Positions 17,803 through 25,094 of a stretch of DNA of 64,000 bases are shown here, one piece after another (within the stretch, counting starts at the first letter, position 1; each line of letters opens with the position of its first letter). A model generated the notes under the pieces. The model had not been told where the DNA came from, searched no databases, and worked only from the letters and a program-made list of their open reading frames with translations. The position numbers were made by a program, and so were the translations under genes. Source of the DNA: Gammaproteobacteria bacterium (GTDB lineage Bacteria > Pseudomonadota > Gammaproteobacteria > Pseudomonadales > Azotimanducaceae); assembly GCA_026706665.1 (NCBI GenBank), contig JAPOYI010000114.1:7268-71267 (forward strand), given 5' to 3'.

Positions 17803-20751
17803 ATGCCCATGCACCCTATTCATCGCCGCTACTACGCCGAAGATCTCGTCCGTCAGCGTAGGGCGGGCGAACGCCGCCGGCAGGTGTCATCCCAGAGACG
17901 CGGGCGCGTGGACCCGAATCCCCACCAGATCGACGCGGTGATGTTCGCCCTGCGGCGGATTCCGGAGGGCGGCTGCATCCTCGCGGACGAAGTCGGACTC
18001 GGCAAGACGATCGAGGCGGGCCTGGTGATCGCCCAGCTCCTGGCCGAGGGCGCGACGCGCATCCTCATTGTGGTTCCGCGGCCGCTCCTGGGCCAGTGGC
18101 AGGCGGAGCTTGTCGACCTGTTCGACATCGAGGCGCTAGAGGCCGCTGATCCGTCGGTCGATACCCTGGGGCCTGGCGTCTTTCTCGCGGGGCGCGAGTA
18201 CGCCGGCGGCGAGACGGGAGCATCGCGCCTCGGTGCCGCGCCCTGGGACCTCTGCCTGATCGATGAGGCGCACGAAGTCTTCGCCGGAATTCACCGCCGG
18301 TACGACCGGGCCGGCATCTACGACGAAGAGAGCCCGCAGGCGCTCCTGGCGCACCGGGTCCGCCGGGTGATCGGCGCATCGCCCGTGCTGCTCTTGACGG
18401 CGACACCGATCCAGAACTCCCTGCGCGAACTCTGGGGACTCGTCCAGTACGTCGATCCGAGCGGCACGCTGCTGGGGGACAAGCCCGTGTTCGAGGGTGT
18501 TTTCTGCGCCGACGACGGCCGCGGCGTCGCCGCTCACCAGTCCGAGGAACTGAGGCAGCGGCTCGCCACCGTGGTTCAGCGCACGCTCCGTCGGCAGGCT
18601 CAGGAGTTCCTGGACCGCCCCTTCGTCGGGCGACGGGCGCAGCTCTTCGAGTACCGAATGAGCCCGGACGAGCGGGCGCTCTATGACGACGTCACCGACT
18701 ACCTGCTGTCGCCAACCCTGCATGCCTTCAAGGGGGCCGCCCGGCAGTTGCTCCTGCTCGGTTTTCATCGTCGCATGGCTTCGTCGATCCCGGCGCTGGC
18801 CGAGAGTCTTGACCGGGTCGCGTCCAGGTTGCGCGGAATGCTCGGGGATGCCGATGCCGGCGAGACGGCCGCGGCGGATTTCGTGCGCGACCTCGAGGAA
18901 GAGGACGATATCGACGAGGGCGGGGCCGGGATGACTGCGGTCCCGATGCCGCCGCCCGCGCTTGAGGCGGCCGCGGTCCGGAGCGAACTCGAACGGGTCG
19001 AGGACTTCGTCCGGCGCGCCCGCGCGCTGCCGCGGGACAGCAAGGCGGCGAGCCTCGTCCAGGCCGTGCGCATGGTCCTGGATCGACCGGTGGACCGGCG
19101 CAAGGTCGTGATCTTCACCGAGTCCCTGACGACCCAGGACTACCTGCGCGAACTCCTTCTCGAGCAGACGGAGCTTCGCGACGATGACATCACGCTGTTC
19201 CGGGGCAACAACGACTCGCCGCGGGCCCGGGCAGCCCTCGATGGGTGGCGCGCCGCCAACGGCCACGGCGCTCGGGCGCCGAGCGCATCGGTGGCCGTGC
19301 GCCTTGCGCTCGTCGACGAGTTCCGGCATCGCTCCACCGTCATGATCTCGTCGGAAGCGGGGGCGAAAGGGCTGAACCTGCAGTTCTGCGACACCGTCAT
19401 CAACTACGACCTGCCCTGGAACCCGCAGCGGATAGAGCAGCGGATCGGTCGTTGCCACCGCTACGGGCAGAAGCGAGATGTCACCGTCATCAACTTTCTC
19501 GCCCGAGATAACCAGGCGCAACGGCTTACGTTCGACATCCTCAGCACGAAGCTCGACCTGTTCGGCGATGTCCTCGACATGTCCGACGTCGTGCTGCAGA
19601 CGCCGCGGTCCGACGCCTCCCAGGAGCTGGTCTCGGCGCTGGGCCCGGATTTCGAGGGCGAACTCCGCCGAATCTGGGAGCGGGCGCGCTCGGTGGCGGA
19701 GGTGGAAGAGGAACTGCGCCGCCTCGGCGAGTCGATGGAAGGTCGCAGGCTCGCACTCGAGCGCGTCCGGGAGCGCACCGTCGGCCTCATCGAGACCAGC
19801 CTCGATAATTCGGTGCGTGACGTGTTCCGGCGCATCCGGACTGACCTCAGGGCGGAACTCGCCACCTTCGACGCGGAACTCGAGCGCATGCTCACGGCGT
19901 ACCTGGACGCGGCCGAGGTGCCGTGGAGCGCCGACAAGCGTGACGAACGGCGGGTTGTCCATATCGGTGCCTCCGCCCGCTTGCCCGCGGCCGTCGCCGG
20001 TGGAGTGTCAGTGAGCGTGGGCGGCAGCGCCGGCAAAGGCCTCGACACTCTTCATCTCTCCCATCCGCTCATCGCCGCGGCTGTTGCCGAGGCGCGCGCC
20101 ACGGGCGCCGATTTTCGGGTGCGATTCGACCTTGGCCCCAATGCCCCGGCTGCGCTGCGGGAACGCAGAGGCCGCCGCGGGCGCCTGGCGCTGACGCGGA
20201 TTGCGCACCGCGGGTACGAGCGGGAGGACCGGCTGCGGGTGACAGCGGTGTTCGAGGACGCCGAGGTGCTGCGCCCCGCGGACGCCGCGCTCGATCTCAT
20301 CCGCCAACCATGCGCGGACGCGCCGCCCTTCGATCCGCCGCTGCTCGTGACCGCGGAGGACCTCGAGGAAGTCGTGGAGGAGGAGCTGTTCTTCGATCGC
20401 CACGAACTGGCGGGCGCGGACGAGTCGAACTTTCGTGACACGATGGACCAGCTCGACCGGTACCTCGCGGACCGGACGCTGGTGCTCCGCCGCGCGCGCG
20501 AACGACAACAGCAACGACTCGTGGCGGCGGAGAGTGCCCGCGACCGGGCGATGGGCGCCGAACAGCGGGGCCGGACCGACAACCAGGTTCGCAATGCGGA
20601 GATCGAACTCGAGCGCATCGACCGGCAAATCGGCGCACTCGAGGCGAAGAGCGACGACACCTACGAACGCGCCCGCCAACAGGCGCACCGCCGGCGGTAT
20701 GCCGCGCCCACGGTCGAACGCCTGCTGGTTGCCGCATTCGAGATCGCGTGA
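17803..20751 (+). CDS. SNF2 family helicase with about 400-aa uncharacterised C-terminal extension
   Basis: Motif I ILADEVGLGKT, motif II LIDEAH, motif III LLLTATPIQN, helicase-C SSEAGAKGLNLQ and QRIGRCHRYGQ. The C-terminal third is charged and helical. Confidence 0.9.
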   Translation: MPMHPIHRRYYAEDLVRQRRAGERRRQVSSQRRGRVDPNPHQIDAVMFALRRIPEGGCILADEVGLGKTIEAGLVIAQLLAEGATRILIVVPRPLLGQWQAELVDLFDIEALEAADPSVDTLGPGVFLAGREYAGGETGASRLGAAPWDLCLIDEAHEVFAGIHRRYDRAGIYDEESPQALLAHRVRRVIGASPVLLLTATPIQNSLRELWGLVQYVDPSGTLLGDKPVFEGVFCADDGRGVAAHQSEELRQRLATVVQRTLRRQAQEFLDRPFVGRRAQLFEYRMSPDERALYDDVTDYLLSPTLHAFKGAARQLLLLGFHRRMASSIPALAESLDRVASRLRGMLGDADAGETAAADFVRDLEEEDDIDEGGAGMTAVPMPPPALEAAAVRSELERVEDFVRRARALPRDSKAASLVQAVRMVLDRPVDRRKVVIFTESLTTQDYLRELLLEQTELRDDDITLFRGNNDSPRARAALDGWRAANGHGARAPSASVAVRLALVDEFRHRSTVMISSEAGAKGLNLQFCDTVINYDLPWNPQRIEQRIGRCHRYGQKRDVTVINFLARDNQAQRLTFDILSTKLDLFGDVLDMSDVVLQTPRSDASQELVSALGPDFEGELRRIWERARSVAEVEEELRRLGESMEGRRLALERVRERTVGLIETSLDNSVRDVFRRIRTDLRAELATFDAELERMLTAYLDAAEVPWSADKRDERRVVHIGASARLPAAVAGGVSVSVGGSAGKGLDTLHLSHPLIAAAVAEARATGADFRVRFDLGPNAPAALRERRGRRGRLALTRIAHRGYEREDRLRVTAVFEDAEVLRPADAALDLIRQPCADAPPFDPPLLVTAEDLEEVVEEELFFDRHELAGADESNFRDTMDQLDRYLADRTLVLRRARERQQQRLVAAESARDRAMGAEQRGRTDNQVRNAEIELERIDRQIGALEAKSDDTYERARQQAHRRRYAAPTVERLLVAAFEIA

Positions 20752-24900: not shown

Positions 24901-25094
24901 TGGGGACGTTCCTGGTGCTGGACGACCAGCTCACGCAAACCGACGACACGCGCATGGACTGGACGCGCCGCCTCTTGGCAGAGGTGGCCCAGGGCGTACA
25001 GGTCATCGTCCTGACGTGTCATCCGCTCGACTATGAGGCCGAGTCTCCGGATCACGTCGTGGACTTGAGCGCGCTGCTGTCGCGTAGCGATTAG
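21921..25094 (+). CDS. AAA ATPase, SbcC/Rad50/YhaN-like with long coiled coil
   Basis: Starts 3 nt after the upstream stop. Walker A LHGPNELGKST, roughly 800 aa of E/R/A/L-rich coiled coil, signature-like LSVGTREQ, Walker B FLVLDDQLTQTD and H-loop VLTCH. No CxxC hook is present. Confidence 0.85.
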   Translation: MWIRRIEVRHCAGIAEGAVDLQRGFNVLHGPNELGKSTLVTALRAAFLLPARSSLASGLQDWNAQEPPEVSVTFEDDDGRVWRVRKIFSASGGKAFLDASRDGEHFDTDARGREVDGKLQEILRWGIEAPGGRGRRGMPSSLITTALLPDQGDVEAILGRSLADDADESGRDRLTEALHALAEDPRLKQIVDVVQARVDEAFTPTGRKRGGRGSPWRGLVDERRRAEDWEREVRRQSDETARVRTRIEEVSGQLRHGRAERDRLREGIARNDARVAAEMAFDEAEEQFVAAEATIGQLRTNEKAVADANDRLRSLATKRKEFAETLADTDTRVETARANLHELESDDAEQRRRLREQERENARLELQQQLAAHARRVEQAAEIRDLGTVIEAGARDIERVEAKLAEKRDLLEKAAAANARDEEKIEALRLERRVGRYRTAAASTDALEKQRADTLELARRATEGEAQAAALRDEANSLNAPDEAELDRLRTAEEDARLAAAKLSVGLTAQLTLETAIETAVDVDGDARTLTPEAGTATEFEAERELAIELSGVATLRVRGGGRDLVEEAAEAGARWKAASSPVFSRTGCSTLDELVALRQRAEGLRSEAHELSREAEAAGLRAEGRNDIERRLATARAERDRHAGDLATRRDEGQTVEELVATFDAALDQAALGNDIENLQEGLQERRSLAERMAVEIDGDARELEDKRARREEQEAQLAGRSAALEDWKAVLERAEEERGRLDRELDAVHAQLGELRAEIADEVGEARSTLNGLTETQTQQQTALEQADGALGKARTELARLEGETPILIENAKSLDLDALRAARDEAREALSALPPLGPEGADTAATREEAELADRRIRELEAELRKAEGALEQTGGQQLDEQREQAREASDALARREQELELDYQAWQLLQQTLSEAEREGAAHLGSALVQPVSQRIASLTAGRYGELALGPQLDATGIELAGSEREFGALSVGTREQIALVLRIAIAEALGTFLVLDDQLTQTDDTRMDWTRRLLAEVAQGVQVIVLTCHPLDYEAESPDHVVDLSALLSRSD

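Follow-up and report, generated by a model that had tools for sequence, protein, structure and literature searches.

A horizontally transferred SNF2–nuclease–ATPase operon is a candidate system against mobile elements

The 64,000-nucleotide (nt) stretch analysed here, which we call the window, comes from a Gammaproteobacteria bacterium of the Azotimanducaceae (assembly GCA_026706665.1, contig JAPOYI010000114.1, positions 7,268 to 71,267) and carries, at 17803-25094, three coupled plus-strand open reading frames (ORFs) that encode, in this order, an SNF2-family translocase, an Mre11/SbcD-type nuclease, and a hookless Rad50/SbcC-like ATPase. We found that the trio is conserved as a block and has passed as a unit between distant phyla, and we favour, with no more than even confidence, the reading that it is a self-contained, horizontally mobile operon that acts against mobile elements. 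By analogy with related complexes, the three products would most likely assemble into one machine. Existing annotation of the families goes no further than "SNF2-related protein", Metallophos, and "AAA family ATPase", and the literature searched, in which Krishnan et al. 2020 on ABC ATPases was not covered, holds no published description of the trio. The three genes are as follows.

17803-20751, plus strand: SNF2-family translocase gene (ATG start, 982 amino acids (aa); DrmD-like motor at about residues 33-690)
20748-21917, plus strand: Mre11/SbcD-type metallophosphoesterase nuclease gene (GTG start, 389 aa)
21921-25094, plus strand: Rad50/SbcC-like ABC ATPase gene with long coiled coils (ATG start, 1057 aa)

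An earlier note, made from the letters of the window, had described three genes packed head to tail, and ORF calling recovered the coordinates and both junctions exactly as claimed. The GTG start of the nuclease overlaps the TGA stop of the SNF2 gene in a 4-nt GTGA (GCGTGACC), and 3 nt separate the nuclease stop from the ATG of the ATPase (TGAGCCATG). The NCBI annotation places the SNF2 start two codons further downstream, which gives a protein of 980 aa. In all three ORFs, GC content is far higher at third codon positions than at first, and higher at first than at second (GC3 >> GC1 > GC2), the pattern of real genes in this window of ~64% GC. Pfam assigns SNF2-rel_dom plus Helicase_C to the first protein, Metallophos to the second, and weak SMC_N/AAA_23 matches to the third.

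Among 185,579 GTDB species genomes, a pattern-limited scan with a profile of the ATPase gave at least 322 confirmed relatives, and 80 loci were retained. When the three window proteins were searched by tblastn against the ATPase-seeded loci, 67 of the 71 informative close loci had the SNF2, nuclease, and ATPase genes in the same order and on the same strand; three of the other four have an orphan ATPase, and one has the nuclease and ATPase only. The trio was recovered again in loci seeded independently from SNF2 homologues, and the percent identities of the three proteins to those of the window co-vary (Spearman 0.89-0.92, 49 loci), so the adjacency that the earlier note had set out is not incidental. 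Projected junction gaps have medians of ~15 nt between the SNF2 and nuclease genes and ~5 nt between the nuclease and ATPase genes. All-against-all ORF clustering of 81 loci gave no fourth conserved gene: only the three recur, and clusters 3, 4, and 16, considered as extra genes, consist of shadow ORFs on the strand opposite the trio, in DNA of high GC content.

Carriers of the trio include Gammaproteobacteria (Pseudomonadales/Azotimanducaceae), Alphaproteobacteria, Betaproteobacteria (Nitrosomonas), Acidobacteriota (Vicinamibacterales, Thermoanaerobaculia, and others), Planctomycetota, Spirochaetia, Latescibacterota, and Myxococcota (Nannocystaceae). The ATPase family comprises 927 clusters at 50% identity (E<=1e-30) among 1.84 billion representatives. 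Three loci (L044, L048, and L059) encode full-length ATPase homologues with neither an SNF2 nor a nuclease gene adjacent; their neighbours are PutA/ArgZ-like genes, large leucine-rich repeat proteins, or a 336-aa protein, and these ATPases may be orphaned remnants or act in trans.

The cassette has been transferred as a unit between distant phyla. Its extent and the motif at its 5' end are as follows.

17758-25112, no strand: mobile cassette, delimited by nucleotide homology to its closest relatives
17763-17790, plus strand: promoter-like motif TTCGAC-N16-TAGACT, with invariant columns TTTCGAC...GATAGACT in six aligned upstream regions

By blastn, the window is 82-85% identical to four relatives (L003, L006, L007, and L030) over 17758-25112, with nothing matching in the immediate flanks, and its GC content is 0.69-0.71 inside the cassette versus 0.62-0.66 in the flanks. 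A 5.85-Mb Vicinamibacterales chromosome (L017) and a 2.9-Mb contig labelled Alphaproteobacteria (L055) share 91% nucleotide identity over 5861-13255, which is exactly the trio, and nothing outside it; L017 and L039 are 94% identical, again over the trio only. Flanking genes are unlike one another among all close relatives, and a neighbour-joining tree built from SNF2 sequences places members of different phyla among one another. At 90% identity, the window SNF2 protein shares a cluster with metagenome-assembled genomes (MAGs) labelled Boseongicola and Chloroflexota, on short contigs for which mis-binning is possible. Two divergent copies (L004 and L009) lie on one contig, and several copies are split, truncated, or decayed (e.g., L004, L050, L069, and L074). 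The cassette ends show no terminal inverted or direct repeats and no recombinase, and no integrase or transposase is recognisable; a 25-nt pair (I4) considered as a terminal repeat is only 76% complementary, lies 230-350 nt outside the boundaries, and is probably a chance match.

Homology among cassettes begins just 5' of the TTCGAC-N16-TAGACT motif, which, from its sequence and position, is probably the cassette's own promoter. A generic sigma-70 scan did not call it, and the promoter and terminator scan was uninformative. There is no SOS/LexA box (CTGT-N8-ACAG) near or upstream of the operon.

The SNF2 protein carries the motifs GLGKT65, DEAH154, TATP199, and QRIGRCHRYGQ546, and motifs I, II, III, and VI, all of them intact, do not vary in the family alignment (Pfam SNF2-rel_dom, 2.7e-23; Helicase_C, 2.3e-16). 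Its closest solved structure in a profile search of the PDB is RapA (7e-33), followed by Snf2/INO80. Among family models, the motor is far nearer to DrmD (1e-125), BrxH, HmaA, and DpdE than to RapA (2e-37): the PADLOC DrmD model PDLC02619 matches residues 33-683 at 1.3e-125, NCBIfam DrmD_b (NF038318) gives 421.7 bits against a cutoff of 950 over model positions 26-653 of 868, and NCBIfam DrmD (NF038317) gives 197.4 bits against a cutoff of 610. The nearest annotated relatives, 36-39% identical over the motor, are found on conjugative plasmids in operons that join helix-turn-helix, SNF2, DNA methyltransferase, and DEAD/DEAH helicase genes, which is a DISARM-1/ARMADA-like arrangement. Judged by these matches, the motor belongs to a DrmD/ArmA-like defence clade. 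Beyond the motor lies a module that is particular to the family.

19603-20748, plus strand: family-specific C-terminal module of the SNF2 protein (residues 601-982; AlphaFold2 (AF2) model m3e740e4f3d39, mean predicted local distance difference test (pLDDT) 84.6)

This module is conserved across the family and is predicted to fold into a long helix, a beta domain, and an alpha-hairpin of ~95 residues. It has no Foldseek match better than E=0.05 in the PDB or BFVD, no NCBIfam match at E<=0.1, and no tblastn match in plasmids. Because the isolated C-terminus has no NCBIfam match, the stretches of the DrmD-model alignments that reach into it are unsupported on their own. The module is a candidate docking domain.

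The nuclease has the phosphoesterase motifs DWH21, GDLF66, GNHD100, H177, and GDTH208, the last of which (motif V) reads GDTH versus GHxH, and residues D21, H23, D67, N101, H102, H177, D209, and H211 are invariant in 24 sequences. It matches Pfam Metallophos at 1.4e-14 and NCBIfam SbcD (TIGR00619) at 59.7 bits, under the cutoff of 77.65. Profile searches of the PDB return Mre11/SbcD of Thermotoga maritima (3e-20), SbcD of Escherichia coli (4e-16), and archaeal and eukaryotic Mre11. The nuclease has no match among the PADLOC models, and its C-terminus, searched alone against NCBIfam, has none either.

The head of the ATPase has Walker A, Q-loop, signature, D-loop, and H-loop motifs (Walker A, GPNELGKS30; signature, LSVG974; H-loop, TCH1032), of which Walker A, signature, and H-loop are invariant in the family alignments. 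The Walker B motif is LDD (1000-1002), and its second aspartate aligns with the catalytic glutamate of the T. maritima and Pyrococcus furiosus Rad50 proteins (LDE/IDE). Both D1001 and D1002 are invariant in the family, and distant two-gene relatives share the DD, reading ILDDAL. The claim in the earlier note that all catalytic motifs are intact therefore stands for the SNF2 protein, the phosphoesterase, and the Walker A, signature, and H-loop of the ATPase, but not for the non-canonical Walker B. Rad50 heads are the best solved-structure matches (6.5e-10 in a PDB profile search), and matches to the PADLOC models LmuB, GajA, and PtuA cover only ~50 P-loop residues, with JetC matching weakly. 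The long coiled coils and the domain at their tip are as follows.

Helices at residues 215-477 and 563-943 of the ATPase, plus strand: coiled-coil arms (AF2 model m977de9e37616, pLDDT 80-92)
23439-23597, plus strand: coiled-coil apex of six beta strands (residues 507-559; AF2, pLDDT 69-83)

The model was built from a 63-sequence alignment and has a mean pLDDT of 73, with the N-lobe of the head below 50. As the earlier note had counted, the window ATPase has exactly three cysteines (11, 589, and 1033) and no CxxC, and none of the 63 family members has a CxxC in the central 40% of the protein. At the site where Rad50/SbcC carries its CxxC hook, AF2 predicts six strands (507-512, 519-523, 526-530, 537-542, 545-550, and 554-559), around which G506, D524, A542, L546, and G561 are conserved. 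The apex region (residues 474-600) has no NCBIfam match, and Foldseek on the ATPase model finds only generic SMC/Rad50 architecture, JetC/SMC-like architectures included. The apex is a candidate dimerisation domain. Some relatives (P0275, P0289, P0292, P0294, and similar) are 1280-1390 aa long and match the profile in three stretches, and thus form an insertion variant. The interfaces within the machine would most naturally be sought in the three family-specific modules (the C-terminal ends of SNF2 protein and nuclease, and the apex of the ATPase), and with the beta-domain apex and the invariant LDD these modules are concrete targets for biochemistry.

The nuclease and ATPase resemble SbcCD/Mre11-Rad50 in gene order (nuclease, then ATPase), in the presence of phosphoesterase motifs I-V, in their long antiparallel coiled coils, and in their best solved-structure matches. 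They differ in that the cassette has no CxxC zinc hook and carries a six-stranded beta domain at the apex, that its Walker B reads LDD and that of Rad50 LDE, that Rad50 models give 20-25 bits versus cutoffs of 700-1087 and SbcD also stays below its cutoff, and that the cassette has an obligatory SNF2 gene upstream and is horizontally mobile. With no hook anywhere in the family, scores below the SbcD and Rad50 cutoffs, and a beta-domain apex, the ATPase is, as proposed, not a canonical SbcC/Rad50. The lack of a hook is a constant of the family but has a precedent in Bacillus subtilis SbcE/YhaN (PMC2811018). Together with SbcF/YhaO, this protein forms a hookless SbcC-like pair that acts in double-strand-break repair and competence; SbcE has a unique central domain, its SbcD-like partner is encoded immediately upstream, and it is described as conserved in Gram-positives (PMC2811018). 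By that description, the likeness to the cassette is one of architecture only (a hookless SbcC-like ATPase, a family-specific central domain, and an SbcD-like gene immediately upstream), and SbcEF lacks a helicase partner. The window ATPase gives no match to the YhaN family of Pfam (AAA_27) at E<=0.01, and its relatives match that family at residues 1-50 (the P-loop) only. In archaea, the herA-mre11-rad50-nurA operon couples a motor ATPase/helicase to Mre11-Rad50 for DNA-end resection; it combines a HerA/FtsK hexamer motor and the NurA nuclease with a Rad50 that has a hook, and it is a vertically inherited housekeeping repair operon. Both it and the cassette are operons of a motor and an Mre11-Rad50 (MR) pair, and the motor of the cassette is SNF2.

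No PADLOC 2.0 or NCBIfam model claims the trio, which gives partial or sub-cutoff matches only, in keeping with the earlier view that no named system fits. The cassette is indeed not a member of DISARM (sub-cutoff scores, partner genes absent), but the exclusion is less clean than was stated, since its motor falls in the DrmD/ArmA-like defence clade. Its likeness to DISARM DrmD, ARMADA ArmA, and IetH lies in a motor closest to DrmD and in the methyltransferase of one cassette subclade. It differs from DISARM and ARMADA in its partners, which are an MR-like nuclease-ATPase pair and not DrmABC or ArmCD, in the C-terminal 380 aa of its SNF2 protein, which have no detectable relatives, and in that most cassettes have no methyltransferase; the DISARM class 1 partners DrmA (helicase), DrmB (DUF1998), DrmC (PLD), and DrmMI (methylase) are not conserved in the 81 loci. 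DrmD-like SNF2 proteins are required in validated ARMADA II (PMC13463889) and in validated ietHAS (PMC13069673). Lamassu, which is reported to have evolved from SbcCD and to sense DNA ends (PMC12663957), and Wadjet share with the cassette a coiled-coil ABC ATPase, which in their case surveils foreign DNA. The cassette differs from both in that it seems to keep an active-looking Mre11-type nuclease as its effector and adds an SNF2 motor. LmuB models match ATPase residues 3-48 or 1-95 only, and LmuA/LmuC-like genes are not conserved; JetC matches at 2.9e-4 over the coiled coil only, and the other Wadjet partners, the kleisin-KITE proteins JetA/B and the Toprim nuclease JetD, are not conserved. 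HmaA matches the SNF2 protein partially (1.8e-42), the ATPase has no HmaC match, the window has no methylase, and the HmaC partner is not conserved in the 81 loci. ZorD models of Zorya type I match the helicase C-lobe only, and ZorABC are absent from the cassette; a Zorya-like cluster in L084 is a separate neighbour of the cassette. The trio joins known modules in a new combination, one that is mobile and widely distributed and includes three uncharacterised domains.

Some cassettes adjoin defence genes or contain methyltransferase genes. In a subclade of cassettes from Ca. Azotimanducaceae MAGs, one to three N6_N4_Mtase genes lie between the nuclease and ATPase genes (L016:6057-9912, L020:5980-9082, and L057:8449-9912), and one of these embedded methyltransferases is 90-93% identical across the three loci and ends 8 nt before the ATPase start. 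A homologue of a second methyltransferase lies ~6 kb downstream instead in L025. In JGI metagenome contigs (L084-L087:1-8583), the trio is directly downstream of a cluster of MotB_plug (ZorB-like), EH_Signature (ZorC-like), and SNF2+Mrr_cat (ZorD-like) genes that also includes MerR and a VIT/VWA protein, and a Y-family polymerase gene follows the trio. The trio of L088 adjoins an AAA_21/DUF3696 pair, and just downstream of it, in convergent orientation, is a TM0106-type RNase_H_2/AAA_11/AAA_12 helicase-nuclease (L088:16830-20348, minus strand).

Distant SbcD/SbcC-like pairs (30-35% identity, DD Walker B), annotated as "DNA repair exonuclease" and "AAA family ATPase", are present in 126 PLSDB records, 67 of them from Rhizobium, and we read their helicase coupling in three loci. 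In the conjugative Sphingobium plasmid pMSHV (L089:4725-11763), the pair occurs with a TM0106 helicase-nuclease of MkoA-like (Mokosh) similarity and adjoins a methyltransferase/restriction pair and HEPN, DUF3883, and WYL genes. Along its entire length, the TM0106-type protein of L088 has 36% identity to the one encoded ahead of this Sphingobium pair, which makes a second independent co-occurrence (n=2). A Sinorhizobium plasmid (L090:2017-9128) has a pair with a DUF3320 helicase that matches PDC-S37/Hhe, and a Tsukamurella plasmid (L091:3579-11782) has a ZorD/DpdE-like SNF2 gene near its pair. These loci suggest a broader class in which an exchangeable helicase accompanies a hookless MR-like pair.

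Between repair and defence, the evidence leans to defence. This rests on the position of the SNF2 protein nearest DrmD, BrxH, HmaA, and DpdE, the methyltransferase operons of its relatives, and the validated systems that use a DrmD-like SNF2; on the embedded methyltransferases, the defence-gene neighbours in L084-L088, and the coupling of distant pairs to defence-type helicases; and on the Lamassu precedent (PMC12663957) and the lack of an SOS box upstream. More tentatively, and with somewhat less confidence than in a role against mobile elements as such, we propose an unnamed class of systems in which a hookless Mre11-Rad50-type machine is hard-wired to an exchangeable defence helicase and destroys foreign DNA by motor-assisted end processing, with no requirement for methylation. 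The exchangeable helicase would be DrmD-like SNF2 here and Hhe/PDC-S37-like, Mokosh/TM0106-like, or ZorD-like in distant relatives.

By homology to SbcCD/Mre11-Rad50, a nuclease dimer and an ATPase dimer would form an MR-like head complex, with the ATPase arms joined at the beta-domain apex and not by a zinc hook. The glutamate-to-aspartate change in the Walker B LDD may make hydrolysis slow and switch-like and so favour a long-lived, ATP-bound sensing state. The SNF2 protein, a putative double-stranded-DNA translocase, would dock on this core via its C-terminal module. When foreign DNA enters the cell or replicates, the core would recognise, in an ATP-dependent manner, its ends or unusual structures on it; the motor would translocate on the duplex to feed the nuclease, or strip off end-protecting proteins, and the nuclease would processively degrade the foreign DNA, whether linear or replicating. 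Most members would discriminate self from non-self by the ends or the structure of the DNA and not by its methylation, and in one subclade the operon-embedded methyltransferase may add modification-based self-protection.

A number of observations weigh against a defence function. Pfam and PADLOC searches of the 109 nearest neighbours of cassette loci show that immediate neighbours are mostly housekeeping or metabolic genes, the commonest being GluRS/GlnRS (15 of 109), owing to stable synteny within one acidobacterial clade. Strong PADLOC matches among these neighbours are sporadic (~1 in 10, a figure without a matched control). IMG/VR viral contigs contain no relatives, and PLSDB plasmids contain no close ones, only the two-gene relatives at 30-35% identity. 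Nearly all carriers are uncultured MAGs. Most members, the window included, lack a methyltransferase, and nothing in them shows how host DNA would be spared. SbcE/SbcF, the nearest hookless SbcC-like pair that has been characterised, works in double-strand-break repair and competence.

The most serious alternative, though in our view a less likely one, is accessory double-strand-break or end-processing repair in the manner of SbcEF or archaeal HerA-Mre11-Rad50-NurA, in which the SNF2 protein would clear proteins or nucleoid structure so that the nuclease can resect. It would account for a nuclease and ATPase head that are bona fide relatives of Mre11/SbcD and Rad50/SbcC with intact catalytic residues, and it has its precedent in hookless SbcE/YhaN with its SbcD-like partner (PMC2811018). 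The largely housekeeping neighbours, the stable position in one clade, the Y-family polymerase gene beside the cassette in L084, and the "DNA repair exonuclease" annotation of the distant relatives agree with it. It fits poorly with the patchy distribution (at least 322 matches among 185,579 species genomes), with inter-phylum transfer within sharp boundaries and between unrelated flanks, and with paralogous copies on one contig and decayed ones elsewhere. Nor would it lead one to expect an SNF2 clade that is defence-associated and not RapA-like, methyltransferases embedded in some members, or a missing LexA box, and AAA_27 does not match the window protein.

Another role in mobile DNA, such as processing DNA that comes in by transformation or conjugation, or persisting as a selfish "addiction" cassette through a nuclease activity that favours retention of the cassette, is improbable: transfer with sharp boundaries and without a recognisable integrase or transposase would suit it, as would the competence role of SbcE, but there are no toxin-antitoxin-like organisation and no terminal repeats, and the flanks have no link to conjugation or competence genes. 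Slightly less probable still is a divergent member of a named defence system (DISARM/ARMADA, Lamassu, Wadjet, Hma, or Zorya). The matches of the SNF2 protein to DrmD, BrxH, HmaA, DpdE, and ZorD models, those of the ATPase N-terminus to LmuB, GajA, PtuA, and weakly JetC, and the methyltransferase of one subclade point that way; this alternative is largely refuted by matches that are partial or far under the cutoffs (as for DrmD_b and DrmD), by ATPase matches confined to ~50 P-loop residues, by a nuclease outside all PADLOC models, and by the failure of DrmA/B/C, LmuA/C, JetA/B/D, ZorA/B, and HmaC to be conserved in the 81 loci. Incidental adjacency of the three genes is refuted to near certainty, with no point found in its favour: synteny (67 of 71 loci), co-varying identities (rho ~0.9), transfer as one block, and coding regions that overlap or abut all speak against it.

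Elsewhere in the window, the flanks of the cassette are housekeeping genes, as had been claimed: a cytochrome c gene at 17196-17810 (minus strand) and an AdoHcyase gene (ahcY) at 25403-26764 (plus strand). In its longest form, the cytochrome c ORF runs across both the cassette's promoter-like motif and the start codon of the SNF2 gene, and the gene probably begins further downstream, at a smaller position number. Scans of the window for tRNAs and Rfam families gave no matches. A 283-nt match at 28716-28998, considered as a part of the system, belongs instead to a minus-strand gene for a small conserved protein. This gene, of ~95 aa (MPRYVIERDIPEIG..., 28708-28995, minus strand), has 84-86% nucleotide identity to copies at L009:13460-13742 and L010:14162-14444, which are directly downstream of cassettes; the window copy lies 3.6 kb downstream, past ahcY and a CoA-transferase gene, and probably has nothing to do with the system. 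Some 5 kb downstream of the cassette is a gene for an AAA_14 plus DUF4143 ATPase (29848-31080, plus strand), which has homologues near the cassette in L019, L027, and L045 (cluster 23). GC content falls to 0.569 at 62001-64000, versus a window mean of ~0.64.

Judged on its sequence, the trio is a solid, testable candidate; since defence modules often turn up in new combinations, it does not come as a conceptual surprise. If it acts in repair, bacteria would repeatedly gain helicase-coupled MR variants by horizontal transfer. If it acts in defence, it would add an architecture in which an SNF2 motor drives an active MR-type nuclease complex, one that would be new and placed between the SbcCD repair machinery and the structural maintenance of chromosomes (SMC)-type immune systems Lamassu and Wadjet. 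It would then also offer a tractable bacterial model of how a remodeller-type translocase and an Mre11-Rad50-like complex work together, which until now has been studied in eukaryotes.

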